Of a stretch of DNA of 64,000 bases, positions 51,325 through 64,000 are shown piece by piece. Position numbers and translations under genes: made by a program. Position 1 is the first letter of the stretch. Every line of letters starts with the position of its first letter. The notes beneath the pieces are model-generated. The model ran no database searches, was not told the origin of the DNA, and saw only the letters and a list, made by a program, of their open reading frames with translations. Origin of the DNA: an uncultured Spirochaetota bacterium (GTDB taxonomy: Bacteria; Spirochaetota; Spirochaetia; JAFGXN01); contig CALXKN010000008.1 in the NCBI GenBank assembly GCA_944388995.1, positions 17,160 through 81,159 on the forward strand. The letters run 5' to 3'.

Positions 51325-53007
51325 GTGGAGTTTATGGGAAGTTTTTCTGTTCGGAAACGGAAACAGTTCGTTTGTTTTTCTGTATTAAAAGCGTTGACAG
51401 CAGCAGCCGTCTTAACGGTCATGTCGTGCGGCGGAGCCGTAGCTGTCGAAAATGTCAAAGTCACGCCGACGGCACTGTCGCTGGGCATCGGCGAAACGGC
51501 GGTTTTAAAAGCGGAAGTGGAACCGGCAGACGCCTCCGTGAACGCGGTGCTTTGGAGCGTTACGCAAGGAACGGCCGTCACGGTGGACGGATACGGCAAG
51601 GTCACGGCAATGACAGCCGGTACGGCAACCGTCACAGCGGAAACGGTCGACGGCGGTAAAACGGCTTCGTGTACGGTGACGGTCGGCAGTATCAGCGACG
51701 GAACAGGCGGAACAGACGGAACAGGAGAAACAGGCGGAACGGTGGCCGTTGAATCCGTTACGCTTGACCGTTCGTCGGTGACGCTGGGAGTCGGCAACTC
51801 GGTCACGCTGCAGGCAACGGTCGAACCGGCGGAAGCAGCCGCCACGGTGGTCTGGAGTCTGGCTTCCGGTGACGGCATTGTGACGGTCGACCAGAAAGGA
51901 CGTATTACGGCAAAAGCGATCGGTGCGGCAACTGTGGCTGTCGAAGCCGGCGGTGAAACGGCCACCTGTCTGGTTACGGTCATTCGGGAAGGTGTCATTG
52001 CCGATTTGGCTTTTATTGACGCGGTTGAAAGAGATATGCAATCAACTTGGGGCCTTAACGACGGTTGGGTTAAAGAAATTGACGGAACCGTACGGATGAA
52101 TTGGCGAAATATGAAAATCGTTAAAGAGGTTACAGAATTGTACTTGAGTAATGAAAATCTTTCTTCTTTGGACGGAATCGAATATTTTACCGGTTTGGAA
52201 TTGTTATCCTGCAGCAATAACCGGCTGACAGCATTGGATGTCGGAAATTTGCACAATTTAAAAACATTGTATTGCGGTAACAATCAGATAGAAACAGGGA
52301 AGCTGATTTTACCGCCGCAGCTTACCTATTTGAGCTGCTCTGATAACCGGTTGGAACAACTGGATGAAACGGTATTACCGGCCGGTCTGACGGAATTGTA
52401 TTGCCAAAATAATCCGCTGACAAAATTGGAAGTGGGAACGCTTACGAAACTGACAAAATTGGACTGTGCCGGAGGACAATTAACACGATTATCGGTAAAC
52501 GGATTAACCGAATTGACCTATCTGGCCTGCGGTTTTAACAATCTTTCTCATCTGGATATAGCAATGGGTAGAGAAGAAATCAATTCAAATCTGGAAACAT
52601 TGTACTGTCAGTATAATAATTTGGCTTATATAAACGTATATGAAATAAAGACATTGAAAGTTCTTGTCTGTGACAATAATAAAATCAGCAGTTTGAACCT
52701 ACCGTACTCGACTTCCACAGAGCAAAGTCCGTTGTACTATCTGACATGTTCCGGAAATAATATAAGCCGGCTGGATGTGGCAAAGTACATAAAGCTCAAC
52801 GCTCTGGATTGCGAAAAAAATGAAATAACCGAATTAAATATTACTAAGCTGACCGGTTTAACATCAACATCTTTTTTCCGCTGCGGAGGGCAGAGAAATG
52901 AAAGCAATCAAATGGTTTTACATCTGACAAGTGATCAGAATACTTTATGGACAAAGAATTGGAAAAAATATAACAACGGTGTCGAAACCCGAATCGCAGA
53001 GCCGTAA
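51325..53007 (+). CDS. surface lipoprotein with three Big_2 Ig-like domains and a C-terminal leucine-rich-repeat array
   Basis: Lipobox LTVMSCGG. There are three units of the form VxVxPxxxSLxxGETxxLxAxVEPAxA...TVTA. These are followed by about ten 22-23-aa LRRs (LxxLxCxxNxLxxLDV). Confidence 0.8.
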   Translation: MEFMGSFSVRKRKQFVCFSVLKALTAAAVLTVMSCGGAVAVENVKVTPTALSLGIGETAVLKAEVEPADASVNAVLWSVTQGTAVTVDGYGKVTAMTAGTATVTAETVDGGKTASCTVTVGSISDGTGGTDGTGETGGTVAVESVTLDRSSVTLGVGNSVTLQATVEPAEAAATVVWSLASGDGIVTVDQKGRITAKAIGAATVAVEAGGETATCLVTVIREGVIADLAFIDAVERDMQSTWGLNDGWVKEIDGTVRMNWRNMKIVKEVTELYLSNENLSSLDGIEYFTGLELLSCSNNRLTALDVGNLHNLKTLYCGNNQIETGKLILPPQLTYLSCSDNRLEQLDETVLPAGLTELYCQNNPLTKLEVGTLTKLTKLDCAGGQLTRLSVNGLTELTYLACGFNNLSHLDIAMGREEINSNLETLYCQYNNLAYINVYEIKTLKVLVCDNNKISSLNLPYSTSTEQSPLYYLTCSGNNISRLDVAKYIKLNALDCEKNEITELNITKLTGLTSTSFFRCGGQRNESNQMVLHLTSDQNTLWTKNWKKYNNGVETRIAEP

Positions 53008-53042
53008 TCCGCACCGGACTTATTGATTCAACAGATAAAACG

Positions 53043-53068
53043 AAAACGGCCCGGATTCGGGCCGTTTT
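53043..53068 (+). terminator. rho-independent terminator after the LRR gene
   Basis: AAAACGGCCCG-GATT-CGGGCCGTTTT. Confidence 0.7.
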
Positions 53069-53403
53069 CGATAAGGAATATTGTGCGGAAAGCGGATCAT
53101 AAAGAGAGAAAACACTCATTATAAATGAGATAAAAATTCAATTTAAACAAGGACAAAAAAGAAATCCGTTCGGGCATTCCGAATACTTTAATGAGTACAT
53201 TAATCATTTAAAATGAGTAAACCGGCCGTCTTCCGGGTTGCGCCGGAAAAATGTCTGTTTGTCCTTGGCAGAAATCACTGCCGTCGGAAAGAATCGCCGA
53301 CAGGTTAAACTGTCGACGGTCTGATTCGGTCGGCATGGTTTTACAGCGGCTTTTCAAACCGATCGAGGCGGCGCCATTCTGCCTGAGCACTCATAAATGA
53401 TTC

Positions 53404-55218
53404 CTATTCTTTTTTTTCGAAAACGTATCTGATGTCAAAACTGTCGAGAGCATCAAATGTCACATTTTCCCATTTATTGCGAACGGCCAAAAACGCATAC
53501 GGCCGCACCAGATAAACCAGCGGCACCTCTTCCCAAATGATTGACTGGTAACGGTCCCACAACGCTTTCGCCTTTTCGGCATCCGCGGTGTAGGAGGCTT
53601 CCGTATACAGACGGTCGATTTCGGCTTCCCATTCGGTTGCCGGCGTTTTCTGATTTGGATACCACATATGGAGGTTGCCGCCGCTCGGCCACACGTTGAC
53701 GCCCTGGCTCGGAAACAGGTTGCTGCCGGAAAGCGCAATCGACAACGACTGCCAATCGAACGAGTAGAGGAGGGAGTCTACCATTTTCGCAAAATCGACC
53801 GTGCGGATTTCCATCGCAATTCCCTGTTTTTTCAAATCATCGGCATAAATGTTGGCAATGTCCGACAGCTGCGGATTGTCAGCGGAAATCCAAAAGTCAA
53901 ACGCGACGGCGTTGCCCTCTTTATCGCGTAAAACGCCGGCAGAGTCCTTCTCCATTCCGATAGACGTCAACAGCGCGGCCGCTTTTTCCGGATTGTAAAA
54001 ATAGTTGAAAACAAGACTCTCCTCAAACACCGGCGAGGCTTCATGAAAAAAGTGGGTGACCGGTTTCGCTAAACCACGGTAAACATTGCGGATGATTTTT
54101 TCCCGATCCAGAAGGCAGCTCATTGCCTGCCGGAACTCTTTCTGTGAAAACCAATTATAATACTTGCGAGGCAGCGCACTGCGGTTAGGGTTTTGATTCC
54201 ACGTGATAAAAGCCGCTGTCGGAGCCGGACCGCCGTTAATCACCTCGTAACCGCCTTTTTCCTGTTCGGACAGCACGGAATCCAAATCGGCAGGCATCAC
54301 CGACAGCGTTTCCAGTTCGCCGTTTTTGAAAAGCAGCAGCTGCGTTGAAGGATTGGAAACGAACGAAAAACGCACCGTATCAAGGTAGGGCAGCCGCTGA
54401 CCGACGCTGTCTTCCAAAAAATAGTGCGGGTTGCGCCGCAGCTCCAAAACCAGTCCGGGCGTGTAACGGCTGATGTAAAACGGTCCGGCAGTCGGAACGG
54501 TGCTCGGATCGGTATTAATGGTAATAAAATCAATGACACGTTGAGAGCCGCCTTCCTTCTTTGCCGCCTCATAAAGAAACCGCGGCCCGATTTGCAGATT
54601 CGCCGCCAACAAAGGATCGGCGACAATTCGCGGAAAAGTCAGCCGAAACGACGAATCGGTCAGCTTCTCCGCGGTAATTTCGCCGCGGCTCCCGTCCGGC
54701 ATCGGCACAAACATCCCCGAATATTCAGCCATATTCAAAGCCGGATCTTTGATGATTTCCTCAATCCAAAAAACAGCGTCGTCGGCATTGAATGCGATTG
54801 TTTCGCCTGTCTTCGGCACAAACCAACACAAACCCGACTTAAATGTGAAATCAACCTCGGTGACCTGACGCTGCTCATCAACACGGACTTCAAAATCGGC
54901 AATGTGCCCCGACCATTTTTTTTCATAAACATCATATTCCAACAAATACGGACAAAGGTAACTCATCACAGCGCTCGTTGGTAAATCATTGATACGCGTC
55001 AAATTGAATGTCGACGGGTCCGACTCCATCGCCTCGTTCCAAACCCCACCGTAACGTCCGATTTTCCGCTCTCCGCCGCCCGGCCGAACCGTCATCTGCG
55101 ACAGAAAGCCGTTTTGGGCTTCCGCCCGCAAAGCCGCCGCCTCCTGCGTCGACACTTCCTTTTTCGGACCGCATGAAACTGCAGCCGCCGCCAAAACCGC
55201 CAAAAAAAAGCCCTTCAT
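53404..55218 (-). CDS. ABC transporter substrate-binding lipoprotein, family 5 (peptide/nickel, OppA/DppA-like)
   Basis: Lipobox AAAVSCGP. The 604-aa size and sequence texture fit SBP_bac_5. No cognate permease genes lie in the window. Confidence 0.75.
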   Translation of the reverse strand: MKGFFLAVLAAAAVSCGPKKEVSTQEAAALRAEAQNGFLSQMTVRPGGGERKIGRYGGVWNEAMESDPSTFNLTRINDLPTSAVMSYLCPYLLEYDVYEKKWSGHIADFEVRVDEQRQVTEVDFTFKSGLCWFVPKTGETIAFNADDAVFWIEEIIKDPALNMAEYSGMFVPMPDGSRGEITAEKLTDSSFRLTFPRIVADPLLAANLQIGPRFLYEAAKKEGGSQRVIDFITINTDPSTVPTAGPFYISRYTPGLVLELRRNPHYFLEDSVGQRLPYLDTVRFSFVSNPSTQLLLFKNGELETLSVMPADLDSVLSEQEKGGYEVINGGPAPTAAFITWNQNPNRSALPRKYYNWFSQKEFRQAMSCLLDREKIIRNVYRGLAKPVTHFFHEASPVFEESLVFNYFYNPEKAAALLTSIGMEKDSAGVLRDKEGNAVAFDFWISADNPQLSDIANIYADDLKKQGIAMEIRTVDFAKMVDSLLYSFDWQSLSIALSGSNLFPSQGVNVWPSGGNLHMWYPNQKTPATEWEAEIDRLYTEASYTADAEKAKALWDRYQSIIWEEVPLVYLVRPYAFLAVRNKWENVTFDALDSFDIRYVFEKKE

Positions 55219-55224
55219 GCCGCC

Positions 55225-55253
55225 ATAGTAAAAGAAAGCCGCCGTCCTGTCAA
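55225..55253 (-). promoter_or_regulatory. sigma70-type promoter abutting the start codon of the SBP gene (leaderless geometry)
   Basis: On the minus strand the sequence is TTGACA, 17 nt, TACTAT, GGCGGC, then ATG (55218). No Shine-Dalgarno is present. Confidence 0.5.
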
Positions 55254-55254
55254 C

Positions 55255-55421
55255 CTTTTCGTTTTTTGGGCGCGCGCCCCTGCGGGGCGCCGGGCTTTCC
55301 GCTGCAATTCGCAGCCTCCCTGCGCCTTCACCGCGGCAAAGCTGCCGCTTTGCCCTGCGCCTTCTCTCCGTCGGCAGCTCATTTCCGCTTCAATCCCTCG
55401 CGCCTTCGGCAAGGTGCTGCG
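55255..55421. repeat. GC-rich structured repeat, copy A (167 bp)
   Basis: Identical to 56426..56591 apart from one extra T. It contains the hairpins GCGCCCC-TGC-GGGGCGC, GCTGC-AATTC-GCAGC and GCGGCA-AAGC-TGCCGC, plus internal sub-repeats (TTTCCGCTnCAAT, CCTGCGCCTTC). Confidence 0.9.
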
Positions 55422-55631
55422 GAAATCGGCATTTTATTGTTTTAGTGTAAAAATGGGAACTTCCGAAAACAGTCAACCGTTTTTCGGAAAAATAACTGCC
55501 CTAAACGTATTTTTGTGTTATAATAACTCCAATAAAAATTTCGTATGGCAAACACAGCAAAAGCAAAACCCGAAAAAAACGCCGATTAAAACCGGAGCGG
55601 AAGATTCGGGAGAAACTTGGAGCGATCGGGT

Positions 55632-55922
55632 ATGAGCTGTAATCTTCCTGAAAGCGTGGTTTTCGATATTGAACGATTCGCAAAGAAAAACAAGATTAAA
55701 AAGGTCGTTCTGTTTGGCTCCCGCGCGAGGGGCAATCATTCGGAACGAAGCGACATTGATTTGGCGGTCAGCGGTGGAAACGCGGCGGATTTTTATTACG
55801 ACGTCAATGAAGAAGCGCGGACTCTTTTAATTTTTGATGTGGTCAATCTGGACGGACCGGTCAGCGGCGAACTGCGCGCCGAAATAGAAAAGGACGGAGT
55901 TTTACTCTATGAAGAAATTTGA
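55632..55922 (+). CDS. minimal nucleotidyltransferase (MNT), antitoxin partner of HEPN (HI0073-like)
   Basis: LFGSRARGNHSERSDIDLAV carries the GSxxRG...DxD NTase motif. The ATG at 55632 is used, whereas the track uses an upstream TTG. Confidence 0.85.
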   Translation: MSCNLPESVVFDIERFAKKNKIKKVVLFGSRARGNHSERSDIDLAVSGGNAADFYYDVNEEARTLLIFDVVNLDGPVSGELRAEIEKDGVLLYEEI

Positions 55923-56304
55923 CAATTTTTGCAAAGCGCTTTCGAATTTGCGGGAAGGATTGCAGCTTGAAGAACCGTATTCTGTCGTCGAACGGACGGG
56001 CATCATCGGGCTGTTTGAAATTTGCTTTGAGCAGGCATGGAAGCTGATGAAAGCGGTTTTGGAAGAGCACGGCAGGACAATCGACCGCGTCGGTTCCCCG
56101 AAAGTTGTCATTCAGCTTGCATATCAGAGCGGGATGATTGACGACAGCGAAAAATGGCTTTCCCTGCTCAGAGATCGAAATATCCTTGCTCACACCTACA
56201 GCGACGAAGATTCGCTTGCCGTGATTCGAACGTTAAAGACGGACTACGAGCCCTTGTTCGCCACCCTCAAAGAAGAGATTGAAACGCGCCGGCTTTCGGC
56301 GTAA
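55909..56304 (+). CDS. HEPN-domain toxin / nucleotidyltransferase substrate-binding protein (HI0074-like)
   Basis: 131 aa. It overlaps the MNT gene by 14 nt and carries the RNILAH Rx4H HEPN motif. Confidence 0.85.
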   Translation: MKKFDNFCKALSNLREGLQLEEPYSVVERTGIIGLFEICFEQAWKLMKAVLEEHGRTIDRVGSPKVVIQLAYQSGMIDDSEKWLSLLRDRNILAHTYSDEDSLAVIRTLKTDYEPLFATLKEEIETRRLSA

Positions 56305-56425
56305 AGCGGAGGCGCGAAACAACTGAGTCCGGTATGAAAGTAGAAGAAATGGGAGCGAAAACTCTTTCAATCGCCACTGATTCTGCCAGCATCTTTACAT
56401 TTGGCTCCGCCCCCCCTCGCTGAAT

Positions 56426-56591
56426 CTTTTCGTTTTTTGGGCGCGCGCCCCTGCGGGGCGCCGGGCTTTCCGCTGCAATTCGCAGCCTCCCGCGCCTTCA
56501 CCGCGGCAAAGCTGCCGCTTTGCCCTGCGCCTTCTCTCCGTCGGCAGCTCATTTCCGCTTCAATCCCTCGCGCCTTCGGCAAGGTGCTGCG
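56426..56591. repeat. GC-rich structured repeat, copy B (166 bp)
   Basis: A direct repeat of 55255..55421 in the same orientation, on the other side of the MNT/HEPN pair. Confidence 0.9.
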
Positions 56592-56655
56592 AAAGAGGCG
56601 TCTGAAAACTATAAATATGAGAACAATCTCATTTAAACCTCATCCATTTTTATCT

Positions 56656-59541
56656 TCAGCAGAAATGCGCCATATCGCGCGGATAATACTTGCAGTCGTG
56701 CAGTTCCGTGTCGTCAAGCCCCAGCGCCTTTACCAGGGCAGCAGACGCTATGCACCAGTACCCGCGGTACTGGTTCTTTTTCAAGTCAAATTTTGTTATA
56801 AGCCCATCAGTCTTCGTGTGAATCCACTGTCTTTTAAGATACCGTTTTAACCGCTCAACAGCCGCCGCTTTATTCTCTTTTGAAAGCAGTACCACCTCAT
56901 ATACCGCATTGGAATATTTCGGACAGCAGAGCTTTTCCGTGCGTATCTGCCAGGATGAGTCCAGCGTCTGCATAAGGAAATCCAGATAAAAATCCCGCTG
57001 TTCCGATTTTTGTAACAATTTTCGATAGTCATCCAGAAATTCAGTCCTGTTAAAAAGCATAATCAAGTACAGAACAGTTTCCATATCTTCATAATTATCA
57101 TTGCCGTCCTGTGCGTCTATCAAATGACGCAAAATCAGGTCTACTTCGGGAAGCAGCTCATGCATATCTAGCCCTAAGGAATATCCTGTATAAAATTTGT
57201 AAAATGCATAAGTATATATTTGATATTTAAACGCTCTTATGTCCGATTCTGCCTGATGTTCATCAGTCTCAATATTATGATGATGATACGTTTGCAGTAT
57301 TTCTTTCAGCTTTTGGGAATCTTTCTTGAATCTTTCGTCAAAATATTCCTGGGGTTTGACTTTATCCCTCATCATTCTTACCCGGGGCGGAAGTTTTTCC
57401 CGCTCCTCCTCCGTAAGAAATTGCGACAGTTCAACTAAAAAGGGCTCTATAAACTCCGACATGAGTTTCGCTTTATTCCCGGCTGAGTGATCATAAGGTA
57501 TTTCAATTGCCGATGTCCGCCGTTTCTCATCCTTCCACAAGCGTCCTATTTTAATAAATGAACCGCCTTTCTCAAATATGTACAACGATATAATCAGTGT
57601 GCAGTCTTCATACTCACATTCTATATAATCTTGCTCCCCCAAGCAGTAATCTCTGTAGGTAAGATTCCTCAAAGTGGTTATTATCCAGGGTATCCACTCT
57701 TTTTTGATGACAACACTATCCCATGACTGCCATGACCCGGTACCGAAACGGCTGCCGGTTCTGGTGTTGATTCGTAGTTCGCCTTTGGGACTCCAGGGCG
57801 TGGGAAGTTTTTTCCGTTCTTCTTCAGGAAGAAATTGTGACAAGGCCACTAAGAAGGGTTCTATAAATTCCGACATGATTTTCAAGTCGTTGTCCGATTC
57901 TTCAAAATTAAATTCGAAACGGGTATAACGCCACTTTGATGTCAGGGTATAACTCTGCTCATTTTTTGCATGCCAAGGAAAATAAGGTATTTCAAGTGCC
58001 GGCGATATCTTCTTTTCATCCTTCCACATGGGAAATATTTTTATATAGGAATACCCATCCCCTATAGGACAGATACTTAATGTTAATTGGCACGTTCCCC
58101 ATTTATTTATGATGCTTTCAACTCCTGTTTGATAATTATCAACACTAAGATTTCTCAATGTGCTTATTATCCAGGGTATCCGGTTTTTTTGTATAACAAT
58201 ACTTTTCTGCTGCCCGCCGCCGAATGTACCGGTTCTTTTTCCGTTAATCCGTAATTCATCGTTATCTAATTCCTCGAAGCTGTATTCAAAATCGGCATTC
58301 AGAGTTTTTTTGCTTTGATATTTTGTTATCTTCTCTATTTTGGCTACTATCGATTCGTCGTCCGACTTATCGGTTTCGCCTGCATACCAATCTTTGCCTT
58401 CGAGCCATACCCCGAACCAGAAAGGAAGATCCCCCCAAGGTCTTTGACAGAGTTCTTTCTTTTCGTTGACACTCCAGGGGGGCGACAGTTTACCCCTTTC
58501 TTCTTCCGTGAGAAACTGCGACAATGCAACCAGAAACGGCTCTATAAATTCCGACATTAATTTTGTTTCTTTCCGGGATACATAGGGTATTTCAATATTC
58601 CATGAACTCTTATTTTCATTTTTCCAGACAGGATAAATTTTGATATAGGAATAATCAAAGGGTACTACATTTATAATAAAACTTAAATTACAGTAACCGT
58701 ATTCATATACGAGAGTTTGCGGGGTGTTATAATCGTCGATAGTGGCATTTCTTAGTGTGGTAATGATCAAAGGTATCCACGCTTTTTTTATGATAATACT
58801 TTCCCATTGTCCCCTGCCGAATGAATCTGTTCGCTTTGCATTGATTTCCAACTCGTCATCATTTAATTCTTCATTGTCAGCTTTTTCCTCAAAATAAAAT
58901 TCGAAATGAACATTCCCGCCCTTACTGATCAGGTATTCTTTTTCTGCCAGTCCGTATTGTGTTATACCGGTCATTGCTTTGAAAAAATTGAGGGAACCGC
59001 TTTCCTTATCGGCAAAAATGATGTTCTGTTTTTTGTTTTCCCTCCAGGGAGGCGGAAGTTGTGTTCTTTCTTCTTCGGTAAGGAATTGTGCCAATTCAAC
59101 CAAAACAGGTTCGATAAATTCCGCCATTAACCTGCTTTTATCCCAGGGTAGATATGGTATTTCAATAAACGGTGTCGTTTTTTCCTTCGGTTCCTTCCAT
59201 ATGGGCATTATTTGAAGGGTCGCATAATCTTTGGCAGATGGTAAAAACTCCAGATTGACTTGACATTCTTCATATTCGTGAACGATATGTCTGTTCCAAA
59301 TCCCTTCCGGAAAGTTGATGTCGTAATCCTCAAAAGGAAGGGTTCTCAGTGTGGTGATAATCCGGGAAATCCACGCTTTTTTTATGACGATACAGTAATA
59401 CAAAGGCATACGTTCCGCTTCATCCAACAATGGAAAGGTTATTTTTTCGAAAATCCGTATTTCGTCGTTGTCCGATTCCTCAAAATGAAATTCAAAGGTA
59501 TCGGATATTTCGGCATCTCCCCTTCTGCCTGTAATGAACAT
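56656..59541 (-). CDS. 961-aa fusion protein: four tandem copies of an unrecognised ~150-190 aa module plus a C-terminal PoNi-like (DUF1910/DUF1911) immunity domain
   Basis: Repeats lie at about aa 15-166, 212-356, 417-523 (+541-583) and 588-719. They share FEFxFEExDNDELRIN, IIKKAWIPxIITTLRN, YIKIxPxWKDEKK, IEIPY and KLMSEFIEPFLVxLSQFLTEEERxKLPPPW. Residues 723-961 begin MRDKVKPQEYF and end YRGYWCIASAALVKALGLDDTELHDCKYYPRDMAHFC. Confidence 0.65.
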   Translation of the reverse strand: MFITGRRGDAEISDTFEFHFEESDNDEIRIFEKITFPLLDEAERMPLYYCIVIKKAWISRIITTLRTLPFEDYDINFPEGIWNRHIVHEYEECQVNLEFLPSAKDYATLQIMPIWKEPKEKTTPFIEIPYLPWDKSRLMAEFIEPVLVELAQFLTEEERTQLPPPWRENKKQNIIFADKESGSLNFFKAMTGITQYGLAEKEYLISKGGNVHFEFYFEEKADNEELNDDELEINAKRTDSFGRGQWESIIIKKAWIPLIITTLRNATIDDYNTPQTLVYEYGYCNLSFIINVVPFDYSYIKIYPVWKNENKSSWNIEIPYVSRKETKLMSEFIEPFLVALSQFLTEEERGKLSPPWSVNEKKELCQRPWGDLPFWFGVWLEGKDWYAGETDKSDDESIVAKIEKITKYQSKKTLNADFEYSFEELDNDELRINGKRTGTFGGGQQKSIVIQKNRIPWIISTLRNLSVDNYQTGVESIINKWGTCQLTLSICPIGDGYSYIKIFPMWKDEKKISPALEIPYFPWHAKNEQSYTLTSKWRYTRFEFNFEESDNDLKIMSEFIEPFLVALSQFLPEEERKKLPTPWSPKGELRINTRTGSRFGTGSWQSWDSVVIKKEWIPWIITTLRNLTYRDYCLGEQDYIECEYEDCTLIISLYIFEKGGSFIKIGRLWKDEKRRTSAIEIPYDHSAGNKAKLMSEFIEPFLVELSQFLTEEEREKLPPRVRMMRDKVKPQEYFDERFKKDSQKLKEILQTYHHHNIETDEHQAESDIRAFKYQIYTYAFYKFYTGYSLGLDMHELLPEVDLILRHLIDAQDGNDNYEDMETVLYLIMLFNRTEFLDDYRKLLQKSEQRDFYLDFLMQTLDSSWQIRTEKLCCPKYSNAVYEVVLLSKENKAAAVERLKRYLKRQWIHTKTDGLITKFDLKKNQYRGYWCIASAALVKALGLDDTELHDCKYYPRDMAHFC

Positions 59542-59780
59542 TGCATCTACCAGTTTAAGAAAAGCTTTTGTATCAGCGGATTGGGCAGATTCTTCATGTT
59601 GATCGTCTTCTTTATTATATTTTATTCCGACTCCTAAGGAACGCAGCCGTCATATCGAAGGGGTGCAACGGTATGACGGCCAACACTCCGCTTTCACGCG
59701 GTGGTCTTATGCTGTTCATGTCGATACCGGACCGCTTCCGACACAACCGAATGAAGTTTTCCGATTTTCCGAATCAATTT

Positions 59781-60486
59781 CTAACAGAAATGGGTCATAT
59801 CGTAGGGATAGTATTTACAGTCTTTCAGTTCCGTATCGTCAAGTTTGAGGGCTTTTACCAAAGCGGCGGCGGCGATGCACCAATACCCCCGGTACCACCC
59901 TATTTTCAGATCCCGGTTGGTTATAACACCTTCGGTTAATGACATAAACCACTGCCTTTTAAGATACCTCTTTAACCGCTGGACGGCTTCCGCCTTGTTT
60001 TCTTTTGACAGCATTACCACCTCGTATACCGAATTGGTCTCTTTGGGGCAACGAAGTTTTTCCGTACTTATCTGCCATGTGGAGTCTACTATCTGTACAA
60101 GATAATCCAGGTAAAAATCCCGCATTTTCGATTTTTGTAATAACTCCTTATATTCATCCAGAAATTCTGTCCGGTTAAAAAGAATGATTAAGTATATAAT
60201 CATTTCCATATCATCATAACCTCTGTCCCTTTCTCTCGTTGTATCAATCAAATTTCTTATGATAAGGTCTACTTCGGGAAGCAGCTCATTCATACCAAGC
60301 CCCAGGGAATAGCCTGCATAAAATTTACAAGCTGCTTCCATATATATGTGATATTTAAACGACCATACATTATATTTTTCCGGATGGCTTATTCTCTTCA
60401 TATTTACTCATCCGTTCAGCAAGATCAGACGCATCCTTATTATATCTTTCCCTAAAATATTCTTCTGTTTTTATGGTGTCTCTCAT
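59781..60486 (-). pseudogene. PoNi-like (DUF1910/DUF1911) immunity gene, apparently split by a 1-nt frameshift; the 206-aa ORF 59781..60401 may still be expressed
   Basis: ORF 59781..60401 aligns with aa 770-961 of the 961-aa protein. The missing N-terminus (MRDTIKTEEYFRERYNKDASDLAERMSKY) is encoded at 60486..60400 in another frame and stops at 60370. Confidence 0.6.
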
Positions 60487-60489
60487 CTG

Positions 60490-60630
60490 TTATTCCTTGT
60501 GTATTTTGTAAATTTTTGGTTTATTCTCGTTATACATAACATTGCCATTTTCATCAAGTTGGTAATATGTTACTTTTCCTCCCTTCGGAACGCCTGCGGC
60601 GTGGCTACAATCCTTTGTGCGAGAAGATTT
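60490..60630 (-). pseudogene. start-less 46-codon remnant, probably the C-terminal tail of a toxin, ending 3 nt before the PoNi-like ATG
   Basis: The open frame KSSRTKDCSHAAGVPKGGKVTYYQLDENGNVMYNENKPKIYKIHKE* has no ATG/GTG/TTG. It begins right after TGA TAA at the edge of the 58-bp repeat. Confidence 0.4.
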
Positions 60631-60642
60631 TTATCAATGGTG

Positions 60643-60700
60643 TCCGTACACACCCATTGATGTTGTCAAAGAACTCCTTCTGTACGGAGATAGGGGGAGG
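60643..60700. repeat. 58-bp junction repeat, copy 1
   Basis: TCCGTACACACCCATTGATGTTGTCAAAGAACTCCTTCTGTACGGAGATAGGGGGAGG is identical to 63943..64000. It contains the 8-bp inverted arms TCCGTACA and TGTACGGA separated by 30 nt. Confidence 0.9.
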
Positions 60701-60701
60701 G

Positions 60702-60929
60702 TTATTCAAAAGTTATTACCATATGCGAACCTGCCGTTTTTTCGGTTACTTTCTGTATAATCTCTTTTTTGTCATCTTCAGTTAATGGCTCGTTTTCTGG
60801 AACAAGCCAATTTTTCATTGAACTTTTATAACAGACAAAACCGCCTACTATCATTTCGCCTGCGATTCTCGCAGTTCTGCCATCGAGTTCTACATCTATG
60901 TATGTGTTTGTTCCGGTTATTTTTGTCAT
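60702..60929 (-). CDS. small hypothetical protein (75 aa) in the immunity-gene array
   Basis: The ORF lies 9 nt downstream of the DUF600 gene. Its first 10 codons are duplicated at 62353..62324. Confidence 0.5.
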   Translation of the reverse strand: MTKITGTNTYIDVELDGRTARIAGEMIVGGFVCYKSSMKNWLVPENEPLTEDDKKEIIQKVTEKTAGSHMVITFE

Positions 60930-61036
60930 ATATTAATCCTATGCATTATCCCATTCGTCTTGAAGAGCCTGATCCCATTCAAAGGTCATATCAAAGTGAC
61001 CGTTCTTTTCAAGGGTGTAAATAGCTTTGTTCCATT
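60899..61036. repeat. 138-bp segmental duplication, copy 1
   Basis: Matches 62323..62460. The first 64 bp are identical and the rest is roughly 85 percent identical by eye. It spans the 3' end of a DUF600 gene, the spacer and the 5' end of the 75-aa gene. Confidence 0.85.
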
Positions 61037-61271
61037 GTGCAAAATGTAACTCTTTTGCACTATTATGAAATTTTATTAAATCAATTTTTGTTTCTCGATT
61101 AAGTGCTAAGTTTAAAGCATTTTTCCATTCTCCATTAATCTGATATTTTGCATTCGTACCAATATATTTATCACTACATTCAATATTCAGTTCAATTTTA
61201 TCCCAAGAGGAATCAATACTATCATTCAATTGCGAACCAATATTTTTATATATATCTTCAATATTTTTCAT
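60939..61271 (-). CDS. DUF600 / YezG / EsaG-type immunity protein
   Basis: 110 aa, starting 11 nt after the nuclease-domain stop with an AGGAG RBS. The overall pattern (acidic, WDKIELNIE...W..A.Y.L...G.F...F) fits DUF600 antitoxins of EsaD/YeeF nucleases. It is a paralog of 62363..62686. Confidence 0.7.
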   Translation of the reverse strand: MKNIEDIYKNIGSQLNDSIDSSWDKIELNIECSDKYIGTNAKYQINGEWKNALNLALNRETKIDLIKFHNSAKELHFAQWNKAIYTLEKNGHFDMTFEWDQALQDEWDNA

Positions 61272-61282
61272 AAATACTCCTA

Positions 61283-61648
61283 TTAATTTAAGAAGAACAA
61301 ATTTTCTGTTTTTTCTATTTTTCCATCCGATGTTTTTATAATGTATGTTACATCAAAATCTGTCGGTCTTAGATTATCAGCATAGTTTATTTTTATATCA
61401 ACTTCAACCTTTTTTCCCTCTGAAAGTGCATCGTTCCATTTTTTTTCCATGGTTTTCCATTCACCATTATTTAGTGTGGCGGTTTGTGGAACATAATTTA
61501 TTTGTTCTCCAGGACCATTGAAAATTCTTGCAATAATATGTCCGCCCTGGTCATCACCTTTAATACCATCTTTTATATCAACTGATTTTCCTTGTTGATA
61601 AACATTTCTGTCTTTTGTTTCAAGTTTTAATTCTCCGCTTACTTTGTT
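61283..61648 (-). pseudogene. orphan, start-less C-terminal nuclease toxin domain (EsaD/YeeF-type, Endonuclease_NS_2-like)
   Basis: Manual translation gives NKVSGELKLETKDRNVYQQGKSVDIKDGIKGDDQGGHIIARIFNGPGEQINYVPQTATLNNGEWKTMEKKWNDALSEGKKVEVDIKINYADNLRPTDFDVTYIIKTSDGKIEKTENLFFLN*. The frame opens after a TAA at 61649-61651 and has no ATG/GTG/TTG until codon 68, so it is absent from the ORF track. Confidence 0.7.
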
Positions 61649-61731
61649 TTACAACTATTTTCTTTTACTTGCAATTGTTCCAAAACGATTAAGTGCAGCA
61701 ACAATATCTTCATAATCAGCATCTATTTCAT

Positions 61732-62262
61732 CTAACTGTCCCAGATTTCCTTAAATTTTAAACCTTTGATACTGTTTTTCTTAACAATATCTATAAACTC
61801 ATCTGTTACAAAATAATCTCGAATAATTAATTGATTTTGTAGTTTAACTTGAAAAAGAGGTGGATAATTGTTTTCCTTAAAATAATATTGCTCAACACCT
61901 AAAATATCATTCTCAAAATACTTATATTTAGTTTTTTTTCGATCTAAGCAGTCCAAAACAGTTAAATTATTTAATAGTACAAAATCGTCATTAAGCGGAA
62001 CAAATCTTATATTTATTTGAGAAATGTCAGAAAGTACTGCCATAAATTTTTTATTTATGAAGAATCCTCTACAATCATAACATTCACAAATATCCCCTGC
62101 AGGATTATTAGAATCTCTATCGTATTCTAATTGAAAATCAGAAGGAATGCTTATTTCTATACCTTTATTAAACTGACGTAAAATTTTTCTATCAGTTTCT
62201 TCGTTTTTTATATAGCATCCTTTGTAATTATCAATATCTGTTTCTAAAATGTATATTTTCAT
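61732..62262 (-). CDS. hypothetical 176-aa protein, immunity-protein-like by context (family not firmly recognised)
   Basis: An AT-rich ORF within the immunity array. Its size and composition resemble DUF1629/Imm-type proteins, but no diagnostic motif was identified. Confidence 0.45.
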   Translation of the reverse strand: MKIYILETDIDNYKGCYIKNEETDRKILRQFNKGIEISIPSDFQLEYDRDSNNPAGDICECYDCRGFFINKKFMAVLSDISQINIRFVPLNDDFVLLNNLTVLDCLDRKKTKYKYFENDILGVEQYYFKENNYPPLFQVKLQNQLIIRDYFVTDEFIDIVKKNSIKGLKFKEIWDS

Positions 62263-62299
62263 ATATCCCCCCCCTAATTGTGAATTTTTAAGAAACCAC

Positions 62300-62353
62300 T
62301 CAATAATTCCTTTCGGATTGTTTGTATGTGTTTGTTCCGGTTATTTTTGTCAT
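62300..62353 (-). pseudogene. 17-codon relic of the 75-aa gene
   Basis: MTKITGTNTYKQSERNY*. The first 10 codons are identical to 60929..60900, after which the sequence diverges and stops. Confidence 0.6.
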
Positions 62354-62460
62354 ATATTAATCCTATGCATTATCCCATTCGTCTTGGAGAGTTTGATCCC
62401 ATTCAAATGTCATATCAAAATGACCATTCCTTTCAAGAGAGTAAACAGCTTTGTTCCATT
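62323..62460. repeat. 138-bp segmental duplication, copy 2
   Basis: See 60899..61036. Confidence 0.85.
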
Positions 62461-62686
62461 TATGCTCAGGCGACATAGATTCTTGAAGTTCAAAAACGCT
62501 ATCCATTAAAGTATTTACAGTTAATAAAGGAAACTTTAATTCTTTTTTTTCAAACGATGATAAAGTATATTCTGCCTGAAATGAACACATTTTATTTAGA
62601 CTTGATTCTATTTTTACAGTCACTTTTTCCCATTTACCGGAAATATTATCTTGAACCGCCTTGCCTAATTCTTTATATAAATCCAT
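62363..62686 (-). CDS. DUF600 / YezG / EsaG-type immunity protein, second paralog
   Basis: 107 aa. The C-terminal KWNKAVYSLERNGHFDMTFEWDQTLQDEWDNA is nearly identical to the C-terminus of 60939..61271. Confidence 0.7.
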   Translation of the reverse strand: MDLYKELGKAVQDNISGKWEKVTVKIESSLNKMCSFQAEYTLSSFEKKELKFPLLTVNTLMDSVFELQESMSPEHKWNKAVYSLERNGHFDMTFEWDQTLQDEWDNA

Positions 62687-62732
62687 AGCATCTCCATTAA
62701 TTGTTGAATATTTTTTTGAATAGTTGGCTCAT

Positions 62733-63842
62733 TTATTTCTCTTTATTTAAAATAAACAGATACTCAGAGACGTGTATATTACGGTTATTCAAATTTCTGC
62801 TTCCCCGGAATGTATTATAAGTCATTTCAACGGTTTTCAGTTTTCCGTAGTGTTCCAGCATTGTTTTCATTTGCTCAAAAGTAATAAATCCTTCAGAATT
62901 ATAAGAGATAATGACAAACTTTGAATCAATTTTATCTATGATTTTTTCCATGGATTTTAAGGCTGAATAAGGTTTGTTGAATTCCGAGCGGTTCCAATCC
63001 TGAGTTATCCCTGAAACTTTACTGATTTCAGCATCCAGCCTGTTCTTTATGATAAGATTCAGCATAAAATAATTTGAACCATAGGGATGCTGGTTATACG
63101 GGGGATCCAGATAAGTAATATCTATTTTTTTTAATTCCCCGGCAAGTTCCACAGCATCTTTTTTATAGATTTTAACCTTTGAATTGAAATTGCTTAAAAC
63201 CGGCTCTTTCAGTTCTATTTTTCCAAAAATGCGGGTTAAAGCGTTTTTCCCGGCAGCGCCGAAACATCCGATTCCGGTATTTTTGTCCTTGTAAAACCCT
63301 TTGAAAACCCCGCTTGTATTGACATGAACCGAAGCCTCCGTTACGAGCGGCGCTAAAAAAAATTTTTTCATGTCTTCTTCCTGCACCACTTTATCAATCA
63401 GACTGCGGTAAGTGTCGATTAACAGAGCGTTCTCATGGGTATAAAAAACCCTTTCTCCTCTTTGAATATTTCCGTCATCCTGAGGGGCATAATTTTTTGT
63501 GATAATTCTCGGTTCTTTTTTGCTGCGGCACATTTCTTCTATTATTGATTTATATTCCCGCCATTTTTCATGCGGAAAATCTTTTTTGTCAGTCAGATAG
63601 CATTCATTGATGAGGCGGGAATATTCTTCCAGATCATTGGCAATTAAAACACTGCTGTATTTTTTCAGCATCCGGGCAACAATTCCCGAACCGGAGAAAA
63701 TATCCGCACAAACAAGTTTTTCTTTTCCCAATAAACCGGCAATTTTTTTGACTTCTTCTTCTATATTCCTGATAAGCTGCCGTTTGTTCCTGATATAAGT
63801 AATGATCTGTGCAGTAAGATATTCTTTATTTTCTTCTTTCAT
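62733..63842 (-). CDS. N6-adenine DNA methyltransferase (SAM motif then DPPY), no cognate endonuclease visible
   Basis: DIFSGSGIVARML (FxGxG, motif I) near aa 48 and YLDPPYNQHPYGSNY (motif IV) near aa 244. Length is 369 aa. Confidence 0.8.
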   Translation of the reverse strand: MKEENKEYLTAQIITYIRNKRQLIRNIEEEVKKIAGLLGKEKLVCADIFSGSGIVARMLKKYSSVLIANDLEEYSRLINECYLTDKKDFPHEKWREYKSIIEEMCRSKKEPRIITKNYAPQDDGNIQRGERVFYTHENALLIDTYRSLIDKVVQEEDMKKFFLAPLVTEASVHVNTSGVFKGFYKDKNTGIGCFGAAGKNALTRIFGKIELKEPVLSNFNSKVKIYKKDAVELAGELKKIDITYLDPPYNQHPYGSNYFMLNLIIKNRLDAEISKVSGITQDWNRSEFNKPYSALKSMEKIIDKIDSKFVIISYNSEGFITFEQMKTMLEHYGKLKTVEMTYNTFRGSRNLNNRNIHVSEYLFILNKEK

Positions 63843-63877
63843 GGCTGTAAAGATTTATATTGTTCCAAATTTCCGGT

Positions 63878-64000
63878 TTATTCTATGCTTTTTGACAGAC
63901 CTTTATACTCAGTATCCCTCTCCGCAAAAATCAACCCGGATTTCCGTACACACCCATTGATGTTGTCAAAGAACTCCTTCTGTACGGAGATAGGGGGAGG
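63878..64000 (-). CDS. 3' end of a gene whose body lies beyond the window edge; its last 40 codons include the 58-bp repeat
   Basis: Only one minus-strand frame is open from 64000: PPPISVQKEFFDNINGCVRKSGLIFAERDTEYKGLSKSIE*. It stops 35 nt before the methyltransferase ATG. Confidence 0.45.
   Translation of the reverse strand, partial: PPPISVQKEFFDNINGCVRKSGLIFAERDTEYKGLSKSIE
63943..64000. repeat. 58-bp junction repeat, copy 2 (may extend past the window)
   Basis: Identical to 60643..60700. Confidence 0.9.

Follow-up and report, generated by a model that had tools for sequence, protein, structure and literature searches.

We analysed a 64,000-nucleotide stretch of DNA (hereafter, the window) from a gut Treponema; a 961-aa protein encoded in it shares 98% identity with MBU3850056.1 of Candidatus Treponema excrementipullorum. 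The genes dnaA, dnaN, gyrB, gyrA and yidC lie at 32-43 kb, as expected from the origin setting proposed in an initial annotation made from the sequence. All substantial open reading frames (ORFs) at 56656-64000 are on the minus strand, and ORF and Pfam analysis agreed with the annotation that these ~7.3 kb contain no metabolic genes. Besides one DNA methyltransferase, this island consists of immunity genes and toxin stumps (Table 1), with no full-length toxin; Pfam does place its ORFs in toxin and immunity families. Neighbouring genes include an MntA/HepT-like (MNT/HEPN) pair. Promoter-like and terminator-like sites were no commoner than in shuffled sequence, and neither the window nor contigs L001 and L002 revealed a recombinase; these two contigs have different heads, and the continuation past 64000 was inferred from them.

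Table 1. Features of the island (window positions)
Feature	Positions	Strand	Basis
961-aa polyimmunity protein	56656..59541	-	four PUR-like-fold domains + PoNi
Free-standing PoNi gene, frameshifted	59781..60486	-	Pfam PoNi_C 6e-20, tblastn, frame translations
PoNe-like toxin tail, 46 codons + stop	60490..60630	-	alignment to L007 toxin C-terminus
58-bp exact repeat, copy 1	60643..60700		distal end of 311-bp Imm74 duplication (60643-60953)
Imm74	60702..60929	-	Pfam Imm74 1.3e-15
138-bp repeat	60899..61036 and 62323..62460		93% identity
YezG-like/DUF600 paralogue, 110 aa	60939..61271	-	weak Pfam, 20.8 bits
Endonuclea_NS_2 (NucA/EsaD-type) start-less toxin relic	61283..61648	-	Pfam, tblastn, frames
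176-aa immunity-type gene	61732..62262	-	Imm11-like, sub-threshold
Junction debris	62277..62353	-	tblastn + frame translations
YezG-like/DUF600 orphan paralogue, 107 aa	62363..62686	-	Pfam 23.4 bits
Solitary type II N6-adenine DNA methyltransferase	62733..63842	-	Pfam MethyltransfD12
58-bp exact repeat, copy 2	63943..64000		at window edge

The 961-aa gene had been described as a PoNi fusion, and Pfam indeed located PoNi_N and PoNi_C at residues 725-957 (PoNi_C, 1.4e-17), the whole PoNi domain occupying residues 724-961 (56659-57372). Overlooked in that description, an unannotated immunity-type domain of PUR-like fold occurs four times (residues about 14-166, 210-356, 416-585 and 589-720) and accounts for ~720 residues of the protein. 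The free-standing PoNi gene is split between a called ORF (59781-60401, 206 aa) and its first ~32 codons in another frame (60391-60486); it shares 68% identity with the PoNi of the 961-aa protein and 62% with PoNi-239 from L007, a contractile injection system (CIS) locus. Three PoNi copies had been claimed; these two are real, and tblastn with three PoNi queries found two. The toxin tail next to the frameshifted gene was also recognised correctly: its 46 codons (60493-60630) align with 47% identity over 45 residues to the end of a 481-aa toxin (pairwise E=1e-9) and share its stop position. That toxin (L007 8084-9529) lies directly upstream of PoNi-239, and by this alignment the tail is the apparent stump of a toxin that formerly preceded the PoNi gene.

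Two DUF600/YezG paralogues had been predicted, and Pfam recovered both with weak scores: the 110-aa protein falls below the cut-off of 21.7 bits and the 107-aa protein above it. The two are 44% identical. In L104, L105 and L106, nuclease toxins of 214 and 282 aa, both intact, are followed by genes identical to the 110-aa one, and the window protein is the putative cognate of the nuclease relic directly upstream. This relic is start-less, as had been reported: 61286-61648 is 96% identical (tblastn) to residues 162-282 of the intact 282-aa toxin in L106, stop codons lie directly upstream, and the sole ATG-initiated ORF is a 55-codon tail (61283-61450) comprising the last 40 Endonuclea_NS_2 positions. 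Imm74 confers immunity to ADP-ribosyl-cyclase toxins, and its pairing with Tox-ARC is documented (PMC3482391).

Both reported internal duplications exist. By ORF coordinates, the 138-bp repeat takes in ~98 nt at the end of a YezG-like gene, a spacer and ~31 nt at the start of Imm74. The 58-bp match never arose in shuffles of the window; it forms one end of the 311-bp duplication (93% identity), which spans the entire Imm74 gene; contigs 99.9% identical to the window carry the second Imm74 gene immediately past 64000. A role for the 58 bp as a toxin junction, as first proposed, was rejected, since aligned junctions elsewhere break at differing points after Imm74.

The 176-aa gene scores 19.8 bits against Pfam Imm11 (cut-off, 22.1 bits) and is 40-45% identical to 180-aa genes located directly after AHH toxins (L001, L007-L011 and L104), a position that suggests an AHH nuclease immunity gene. 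In the adjacent debris, an AHH toxin tail of 18 codons (62277-62330) overlaps an Imm74 start fragment of 14 codons (62312-62353). The initial annotation had named the other two toxin relics and missed this third one, together with the Imm74 fragment.

The methyltransferase, also called correctly, matched a type II MTase in PADLOC (392 bits). In L011 an 81%-identical counterpart has an EcoRI-family endonuclease and an IS3-type transposase as partners; the window enzyme is a passenger outside the toxin/immunity logic. With the MntA/HepT-like pair, the methyltransferase might point to an anti-phage or toxin-antitoxin island acting inside the cell, in which these genes and the nuclease would be the actors. 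However, PADLOC and PHROGs matched only the methyltransferase within the island, this enzyme belongs to an EcoRI-type restriction-modification unit elsewhere, and only stumps of the nuclease are present in the window. Endonuclea_NS_2 and DUF600 are best studied in EsaD/EsaG and YeeF/YezG, which could instead indicate a T7SS/LXG toxin-immunity locus or its trace. Yet neither the window nor any Treponema homologue showed an LXG, WXG or T7SS component; none of the Treponema proteins examined has an LXG or WXG domain, such N-termini appearing only in distant Tox-ARC carriers, and the carrier of the full-length relatives, which adjoin injection-system genes, is a different one. We consider either version, intracellular defence or T7SS, very improbable. 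The Firmicute T7SS/LXG flavour initially ascribed to the island is unsupported because the families are pan-bacterial, spread across spirochaetes and several secretion routes: DUF600 (Imm36) with NucA-type toxins, Imm11 with AHH, and Tox-ARC have been catalogued in spirochaetes, the same toxin and immunity families serve several secretion routes (both PMC3482391), and PoNe is used by T5SS, T6SS and T7SS (PMC6688995).

The island cassettes match polymorphic toxins of other gut Treponema. These relatives have the intact counterparts at the 3' ends of CIS clusters, where they immediately follow eCIS_core/DUF4157 genes. The full-length toxins have a ~290-residue N-terminal carrier with membrane helices, then one or two warheads (a PoNe-like nuclease; an ADP-ribosyl cyclase plus an AHH or NucA-type nuclease; or a new ~230-residue domain), and each is followed by its cognate immunity gene(s). 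L007-L010 and L016 encode a sheath, T4_gp19 tube, CIS_tube, gpD-like protein, AAA ATPase and gpV-type spike together with an eCIS_core gene, toxins, PoNi and Imm74; no Pfam-recognisable baseplate wedge protein was present in the 20 kb examined. In L037, a Treponemataceae chromosome, eCIS_core is followed by a 702-aa toxin (Endonuclea_NS_2, 5e-33) and a YezG-like gene (1e-24). In L106, an eCIS_core gene precedes the 282-aa nuclease and its 110-aa YezG-like partner by a few genes, and in L107 the order is eCIS_core, a 787-aa toxin, a PUR-like unit and an orphan copy of the toxin/PUR-like pair. This gene adjacency makes CIS particles carrying these toxins a candidate delivery route.

Profile searches identified the N-terminal extension of the 282-324-aa nuclease homologues as a Tox-ARC domain, with matches to PDB 9ro8 ("ADP-ribosylcyclase toxin"; E=8e-61) and the Aplysia cyclase 1lbe (1.5e-4). 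The full-length P0396 (659 aa) combines carrier, ARC and AHH. Over residues 1-287 it shares 96% identity with the carrier of the 481-aa toxin, whose gene immediately follows an eCIS_core gene. In relatives, composite ARC/nuclease toxins are followed by the nuclease immunity gene and then Imm74, which explains the gene order at 60702-61648.

The distal 3.4 kb of the window have a foreign composition (GC3 18-38% vs 42-60%). Imm74, both YezG-like genes and the 176-aa gene have a GC3 of 18-30%, the backbone 42-60% and the two PoNi genes 43-46%. The same 3.4 kb recur in other genome backbones at 98-99.9% identity, and backbones with GC contents of 30% and 58.6% carry a block comprising the AHH stump, the 180-aa gene and Imm74 at 98.6-99% nucleotide identity. 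Cassette content varies among strains (L104, L105, L001 and L002). The locus is not invariant, and toxin homologues are present elsewhere; this comparison and the Pfam placement, the two checks named in the initial annotation as able to refute it, both speak for the annotation. Past 64000, where a full-length toxin had been suggested as a target of search, the 99.9%-identical contigs showed none. L001, 99.94% identical to 60839-64000, reaches housekeeping genes about 2.3 kb past 64000. Its head gene encodes a 212-aa nuclease whose start Met lies inside the last ARC residues, so that the protein has neither carrier nor ARC; as the catalytic domain is intact and the start codon kept, it could still be active. 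The far flank of L001 has 30% GC and is 98% identical to the backbone of another species (L104).

This flank, the sharp composition shift (GC3 18-30% vs 42-60%) and several metagenome contigs that break exactly at repeats raised the question of a metagenomic chimera, in which the distal low-GC part (about 60.6-64 kb) would come from another genome, joined at the Imm74 duplication or the 138-bp repeat. By contrast, four independent assemblies span the transition at 60.5-60.7 kb. L012 (a 212-kb contig) and L013 (54 kb) have the window backbone to 62409 and 62377, respectively; L003 and L004 share the order methyltransferase, 206-aa PoNi, start of the 961-aa gene, spanning about 59.5-64.2 kb by gene position, not by alignment to the window. 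Furthermore, the repeats are merely 93% identical or, at 58 bp, shorter than a read, and the presence of the same cassette block in a third backbone (58.6% GC) means that real transfer clearly happens. An assembly artefact therefore seems a poor explanation, and we give it little credence.

Taking these results together, we favour, with somewhat better than even confidence, an acquired orphan array of polyimmunity genes and toxin relics that would protect against injected toxins. In warfare between bacteria, the most likely role of the island is that of a shield and not of a weapon, given that intact versions of its toxins adjoin phage-tail-like injection machines in related Treponema. What remains of the toxins is three dead stumps, and the retained immunity comprises two PoNi, four PUR-like domains, Imm74, two YezG-like genes and one Imm11-like gene. 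The orphan-immunity or displaced-toxin array initially proposed is supported, with no full-length toxin in the window. The annotation had left a choice between an undescribed delivery route and a purely defensive arsenal; the former now has a concrete CIS candidate in relatives, and the latter is the reading that we prefer. The anatomy and the comparison with relatives suggest that the array was built by serial recombination of toxin C-terminus/immunity cassettes, each event leaving the prior toxin stump and its immunity gene downstream, with horizontal transfer as a second route. The intact immunity proteins would bind and neutralise matching toxins injected by neighbouring Treponema, and the protected cell would not itself fire these toxins, by analogy with the acquired interbacterial defence (AID) clusters of Bacteroidales, which are directed against T6SS toxins.

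The island might instead be a reservoir of orphan cassettes for an active toxin locus and CIS elsewhere in the genome or past the retrieved sequence, with stumps and immunity genes as spare parts recombining into the main toxin gene. Relatives do have orphan toxin-C-terminus/immunity pairs directly after full-length toxins (L107; L007-L010), and the ~360-nt nuclease relic, 92-97% identical to intact genes, is a possible recombination substrate. However, the 64-kb window contains no CIS or carrier sequence (CIS proteins gave no match at E<=0.01), the L001 extension ends in housekeeping genes with a 5'-truncated head nuclease, and foreign composition with cross-species identity suits acquisition better. 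Candidatus T. excrementipullorum is also absent from the best 80 spike-family genomes, a set chosen with a pattern pre-filter in which the species has one representative, possibly incomplete genome. We regard a reservoir as unlikely, though less so than a chimera.

An acquired orphan immunity array is a known kind of locus, analogous to Bacteroidales AID. Like the polyimmunity loci of Zhang, Aravind and co-workers (2012; PMC3482391), the island has immunity genes of unrelated structure, tandem and co-oriented, with no matching full-length toxin and is strain-variable, and like their polyimmunity proteins it fuses domains, here four PUR-like and a PoNi, in one polypeptide. In that survey, extended polyimmunity loci were found only in Proteobacteria, Bacteroidetes, Firmicutes and Actinobacteria, whereas the host here is a spirochaete and one domain family is unannotated. 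With three recognisable toxin stumps, the island resembles a toxin locus in decay no less than a pure array of immunity genes. The AID and rAID-1 clusters of gut Bacteroidales, which counter T6SS effectors and lie on mobile elements or beside a XerD-type recombinase (bioRxiv 10.1101/471110), similarly combine a gut host, orphan immunity genes, skewed GC and high identity across species. Protection against neighbour-injected toxins is predicted here too; unlike in AID, the corresponding toxins are associated with a phage-tail-like injection system that includes eCIS_core genes.

Orphan C-terminus/immunity modules also occur downstream of rhs and cdiA genes. As in those modules, the principle of which has been described (PMC3482391), start-less toxin C-termini stand in series, each with an intact immunity gene after it, and share a conserved 5' segment able to recombine with the main gene. 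By contrast, there is no main rhs or cdiA gene here, the L001 head gene is truncated, and the carrier of the full-length relatives is a membrane-helix N-terminus encoded beside DUF4157. Like eCIS/PVC toxins, the related Treponema toxins end sheath/tube/spike/AAA clusters, adjoin eCIS_core/DUF4157 (PVC-metallopeptidase) and swap C-terminal domains in the manner of polymorphic toxins. Most described eCIS toxins have no adjacent immunity genes (PMC8213781 and PMC3482391), whereas the Treponema ones consistently have immunity genes and orphan arrays; unlike in eCIS toxin fusions, DUF4157 is a separate small gene, and the window has none of the machinery. The cited parts of this literature do not mention nested ARC and nuclease warheads that precede a nuclease immunity gene and, after it, Imm74. 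The immunity families of the window are those of PoNe/PoNi, EsaD/EsaG, YeeF/YezG, Tox-ARC/Imm74 and Tox-AHH/Imm11, and the pairings match the literature, although in the window the immunity halves alone are intact.

ORF calling placed every sizeable ORF between positions 56656 and 64000 on the minus strand, and none of them was a metabolic gene. The organism is a Treponema. In Candidatus Treponema excrementipullorum, a protein annotated as "DUF1911 domain-containing protein" shares 98% identity with the 961-aa protein of the island. The origin-region genes dnaN, dnaA, gyrB, gyrA and yidC lie at 32-43 kb. Six immunity genes stand in tandem on the minus strand of the island, encoding the 961-aa polyimmunity protein, a frameshifted PoNi, Imm74, two YezG-like proteins and an Imm11-like protein. 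Toxins are represented in the window by three stumps only, that is, by dead 3' remnants of toxin genes. With at least four tandem co-oriented immunity genes or domains, variable content and no full-length cognate toxin, the island belongs to the heterogeneous polyimmunity loci and also keeps toxin relics; this kind of locus was described in 2012 (PMC3482391, in excerpt).

Features of the island, listed in the direction of transcription
Feature	Position	Strand	Remark
58-bp repeat, copy 2	63943-64000		first in transcription direction
Type II N6-adenine methyltransferase	62733-63842	minus	Pfam D12 class; PADLOC type II MTase, 392 bits
YezG-like/DUF600 gene, 107 aa	62363-62686	minus	
14-codon Imm74 start fragment and 18-codon AHH toxin tail	62277-62353	minus	found by tblastn
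176-aa gene	61732-62262	minus	Imm11 match below threshold
Endonuclea_NS_2 domain without start	61283-61648	minus	
Second YezG-like gene, 110 aa	60939-61271	minus	
Imm74	60702-60929	minus	Pfam 57.6 bits, cut-off 27.1
58-bp repeat, copy 1	60643-60700		
Toxin tail, 46 codons	60490-60630	minus	
PoNi gene, frameshifted	59781-60486	minus	
961-aa gene	56656-59541	minus	C-terminal 238 residues form a PoNi domain

The gene inventory of the initial annotation largely stood, with four corrections. It had counted three PoNi domains; tblastn with three PoNi queries found two, with PoNi_C scores of 64.9 and 72.5 bits (Pfam cut-off 25) and a PoNi_N score of 22.7 bits (cut-off 22.4). Its nuclease relic and 46-codon toxin tail were both confirmed, and the AHH tail is a third stump that it had missed. 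The 58-bp repeat is real but forms the end of a longer duplication (311 bp, 93% identity) that takes in the entire Imm74 gene. The large PoNi fusion protein was also correctly recognized, except that its N-terminal ~720 residues, which are four repeats of another domain, had been overlooked. The 176-aa gene product scored 19.8-20.4 bits against Imm11, below the Pfam cut-off of 22.1 bits, and its 180-aa homologues matched nothing; its position directly after AHH toxins in relatives makes it a candidate AHH immunity gene. Rfam at E<=0.1 matched no non-coding RNA across 54500-64000, and promoter-like and terminator-like sites in the region were no more frequent than in shuffled sequence.

The four ~150-residue units of the 961-aa protein belong to a family of stand-alone 170-200-aa proteins, which we call PUR-like after their fold. 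The family has no Pfam domain and comprises 90 proteins, all from metagenomes and MAGs. In one related metagenome contig (L107), the start of a stand-alone unit coincides with the stop codon of the gene for a 787-aa toxin, and this toxin gene directly follows an eCIS_core gene, a family marking extracellular contractile injection systems (eCIS). Just downstream lie an orphan copy of the last 262 residues of this toxin and a truncated unit. An equivalent coupling of a unit with a 234-aa toxin stump was found in L023. These two couplings indicate that the PUR-like unit is the immunity partner of a ~230-residue toxin domain (L107 7300-8001; L023 136-840), for which Pfam and PDB sequence searches gave nothing. 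Four PUR-like units joined to PoNi make the 961-aa protein a polyimmunity protein in the sense of Zhang et al. (PMC3482391, in excerpt). Stand-alone units in L020-L022 adjoin secreted F5/8-type-C proteins, a neighbourhood with no bearing on the role of the unit. The junction of units 3 and 4 is rearranged (window 57787-58030, residues ~505-585), running from the unit 4 head (RFEFNFEESDND) through the unit 3 tail (LKIMSEFIEP...PWSPKG) to the unit 4 body, and this order is conserved in the 987-aa protein MBU3850056.1.

Intact toxins related to the stumps were found in other loci. In L007-L010, an AAA ATPase, a gpV-type spike, a DUF2997 protein, a pentapeptide protein and a 1113-aa protein are followed by eCIS_core/DUF4157, a 442-aa toxin and PoNi. 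An AHH gene comes next, with a 180-aa gene and Imm74 after it, and then a further set of eCIS_core, a 481-aa toxin and PoNi. Upstream of the spike, L016 carries genes for FHA, VWA, phage sheath, T4_gp19 tube, CIS_tube, a gpD-like protein and a radical-SAM protein. This set is a contractile injection system (CIS) cluster. None of the genes seen in L016 or L008 had a Pfam baseplate domain of the wedge type (gp25/gp6-like). The cluster (L016 1-15000, L008 1-7200, L018) also includes a ~1100-aa protein without a Pfam match. The 46-codon tail in the window, all that is left of a PoNe-like toxin upstream of the PoNi gene, aligns with the end of the 481-aa toxin, and the PoNi domains of the window are 58-62% identical to the PoNi that follows this toxin. 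The island thus resembles known PoNe/PoNi loci in having PoNi genes and differs from them in that the preceding toxin is a stump. In the 442- and 481-aa homologues, the PD-(D/E)xK motif was recognized by eye alone; neither protein has a Pfam match.

The nuclease cassette has a similar setting elsewhere. In the Treponemataceae chromosome L037, a 1075-aa protein and eCIS_core precede a 702-aa toxin ending in Endonuclea_NS_2 (5e-33) and a YezG-like protein (1e-24). In L106, eCIS_core lies four genes upstream of a 282-aa nuclease, and the next gene encodes the very 110-aa YezG-like protein of the window. Homologues of a 212-aa nuclease found in L001 share their first ~29 residues with AHH toxins, and such common starts with different C-termini are the signature of polymorphic toxins. 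The full-length toxins have an N-terminal carrier of ~290 residues with membrane helices, for which no Pfam or PDB sequence match was found. Separately, the 128-aa protein P0077, present on 56 contigs, has T4_gp19 tube and Endonuclea_NS_2 Pfam matches together and may be a tube-toxin fusion, by analogy with Hcp-effector fusions.

Some of these toxins carry a composite warhead, the toxic C-terminal part. In an exhaustive HMMER search, the first 77 residues of the database protein P0089 corresponded to the C-terminal end of hundreds of polymorphic toxins with RHS, PAAR, LXG, WXG, DUF637 or PT-TG N-termini. The domain profile matched PDB 9ro8, "ADP-ribosylcyclase toxin" (8e-61), Aplysia ADP-ribosyl cyclase 1lbe (1.5e-4) and CD38, which identifies the domain at the P0089 N-terminus as Tox-ARC (ARC, ADP-ribosyl cyclase). 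Tox-ARC is typically coupled with Imm74, according to an excerpt of Zhang et al. (PMC3482391). Two full-length Treponema-type proteins, P0396 (659 aa) and P0397 (785 aa), consist of carrier, ARC, linker and AHH, and residues 1-287 of P0396 share 96% identity with the carrier of the 481-aa toxin. In relatives, the first gene after a composite toxin encodes the nuclease immunity protein and the second encodes Imm74, which explains the order of nuclease relic, 110-aa YezG-like gene and Imm74 in the window. No ARC sequence is left in the window itself; the island shares Imm74 with Tox-ARC/Imm74 systems, whereas the ARC toxin domain is found in the full-length homologues of relatives. We had considered the 212-aa L001 nuclease as an intact toxin at the head of the island, its upstream end beyond 64000. 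This was dropped, since its first methionine lies in ...DPDTMAETVIFERKAG, the final ARC residues; carrier and ARC are absent, so it too is a 5'-truncated remnant.

The initial annotation had given the island a T7SS/LXG flavour. No LXG, WXG100 or T7SS core (EssC) Pfam match was found in the island, and delivery by a T7SS is not supported: the full-length Treponema homologues have another N-terminus, and their neighbours are genes for sheath, tube and eCIS_core proteins. The T7SS label is a product of which examples are best studied and does not describe the biology of this island. Spirochaetes had already been recorded as carrying Tox-ARC and the combinations of DUF600 with NucA-type toxins and of Imm11 with AHH (PMC3482391, in excerpt). 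We regard a T7SS-type locus, or an intracellular defence or toxin-antitoxin island, as extremely improbable. An anti-phage island or prophage was also considered and rejected: PADLOC and PHROGs matched the methyltransferase only, plus a neighbouring MNT gene in PADLOC.

Exact-protein look-ups gave other metagenome contigs, from which we infer the continuation of the island past 64000 (99.9% match to the window). L012 and L013 match at 99.9% over 51731-62409, L001 over 60839-64000 and L002 over 60576-64000, the latter two extending further. L003 and L004 have the gene order of the window from the methyltransferase to a 206-aa PoNi (~59.5-64.2 kb by gene position, not by alignment). The PoNi ORF is called as 186 aa in L012 and 206 aa in L013. 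In L001, the island is ~2.3 kb longer, with a second Imm74, a 180-aa paralogue of the 176-aa gene, a 142-aa chimera and the 212-aa Endonuclea_NS_2 protein, followed by an AT-rich gap and housekeeping genes in divergent orientation. In the chimera, a YezG-like N-terminus is followed by the second half of an AHH domain, and the AHH motif is absent. The heads of L002, L005 and L006 differ from that of L001, and L104 and L105 hold 4-6-gene versions only, the one in L105 in another genomic context. These differences in heads and gene content indicate that the island turns over between strains. The initial annotation had raised the case of an invariant, syntenic locus, and this is not what we found: cassette content differs between strains (L001, L002, L104, L105).

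Small chimeric ORFs in L002 (666-965) and among database proteins (P0080-P0096) have a PUR-like unit that runs into the C-terminal ~37 residues of the nuclease toxin at ...WKDE/VDIQIIY.... Judged by these junctions, the ORFs show apparent illegitimate recombination between immunity and toxin cassettes in other strains.

The distal cassettes are foreign in composition. GC3 is 18-30% in Imm74, both YezG-like genes and the 176-aa gene, compared with 42-60% in backbone genes, 43-46% in the two PoNi genes and 38% in the methyltransferase. CIS-bearing loci have an overall GC of 29.5% (L007, L008, L016 and L025) or 34% (L107). The far flank of L001, at 30% GC, shares 98% identity with the backbone of L104, which comes from another species of low GC, and the block of AHH stump, 180-aa gene and Imm74 is 98.6% identical in L011, whose backbone has 58.6% GC. 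Island blocks are thus 98.6-99.9% identical to copies in backbones of 30% and 58.6% GC. From the foreign GC3 and these near-identical blocks in other species, we read the cassettes as probably having spread recently between species. That the join of the low-GC cassettes to the backbone is an assembly chimera is quite improbable: the composition changes sharply there, but four independent contigs cross the transition. Backbone GC is itself uneven across window 1-64000, from 33% to 59% per kb (36-39% at dnaA/dnaN, 59% at 4-5 kb).

Skewed GC and near-identical copies in other species are features that the island shares with the acquired interbacterial defence (AID and rAID-1) clusters of Bacteroidales. 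Those clusters also reside on mobile elements or beside a XerD-type recombinase, and their intergenic repeats are integron-like. Gene calling in the window, L001 and L002 gave no recombinase adjoining the island, and the intergenic repeats of the island are the 58-bp and 138-bp duplications only. An IS3-type transposase adjoins the related block in L011, and L104 and L105 have a Mor-like gene. An integron cassette array was considered and rejected: the 58-bp repeat has an 8-bp inverted repeat, yet there are only two copies, both ends of the Imm74 duplication; other loci break elsewhere after Imm74, and no integrase gene was called nearby. In L011 (11261-16978), a relative of the window methyltransferase (81% nucleotide identity) is paired with an EcoRI-family endonuclease, an MFS transporter and the transposase. 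An inverted partial Imm74 3' end with 45 bp of the 58-bp repeat adjoins this transposase.

Searching the window with CIS proteins by tblastn gave zero matches at E<=0.01, including for sheath, tube, spike, AAA ATPase and DUF4157/eCIS_core, all of which occur in the related loci (L007-L010, L016, L037, L106, L107). The window is therefore not an eCIS/PVC-type toxin locus; its cassettes match the toxins of such loci. We scanned species-representative genomes with a spike alignment and took the best 80 genomes. The spike family was present in many Treponema MAGs (from rumen, horse, chicken and other sources), in Candidatus T. scatequi and in the cultured T. lecithinolyticum ATCC 700332 and Breznakiella homolactica RmG30; the nearest of its more distant relatives outside spirochaetes were in cyanobacteria, Methanoperedens and Chloroflexi. 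Candidatus T. excrementipullorum was not among these best 80 genomes. Together with the lack of CIS matches in the window, this favours a defensive, AID-like role, which we consider the probable function of the island. Orphan immunity arrays have been shown to be protective in Bacteroidales (bioRxiv 10.1101/471110). The immunity genes of the window would then be expressed and protective, and the injection system of the relatives would deliver these toxins into bacteria. The same two results count against the island being an orphan reservoir of an active toxin locus elsewhere in the same genome, which we think rather unlikely.

The antibacterial reading is helped by the gene in immunity position that follows every toxin seen in the related loci, and by lipoprotein genes after toxins of cell-wall type. 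One or two such genes lie downstream of the CIS-linked toxins at L025 16266-19599 and L106 1868-3682, whose C-termini appear by eye LD-transpeptidase-like and M23-like, respectively (Pfam is silent on the L106 toxin). This arrangement suggests that the targets are in the cell wall and that immunity acts in the periplasm. The CIS-linked toxins of the uncultured gut Treponema loci that we inspected consistently had immunity genes as partners. According to excerpts of PMC8213781 and PMC3482391, immunity genes are missing for most eCIS toxins, and the pairing seen here bears on why this is so and on whether eCIS are used against bacteria.

A joint reading can be offered tentatively. Host-associated Treponema, in the gut and elsewhere, may use CIS against bacteria, with toxins loaded through a small DUF4157 partner and a membrane-helix carrier; some toxins would combine ARC and nuclease with nested immunity genes, and others would hit peptidoglycan, with lipoprotein genes in immunity position. 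The island would then be the first recognized acquired shield against CIS-delivered toxins, including a new PUR-like immunity family fused four times to PoNi and cognate to a new ~230-residue toxin domain. New here are the lineage, the PUR-like immunity family and its toxin partner (two families without annotation), the fivefold fusion protein and the putative link to an undescribed Treponema CIS whose toxins come with immunity genes; our literature search found no paper on Treponema CIS. Spirochaetes thereby join the lineages that keep extended orphan-immunity arrays, which suggests that the defensive logic of Bacteroidales AID is also at work in Treponema of animal and non-industrialized human guts. 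The weapon pointed to, outside the window, is a more interesting lead than the island itself, and it is testable. CIS clusters occur widely across Treponema genomes and MAGs.

Between the island and an ABC substrate-binding gene, we also observed an MntA/HepT-like (nucleotidyltransferase/HEPN) toxin-antitoxin pair (55617-56304, plus strand). It is bracketed by two GC-rich 173-bp direct repeats (55252-55424 and 56423-56594) that are 98-99% identical and the sole copies in the window, and pair and repeats together look like a small inserted cassette.
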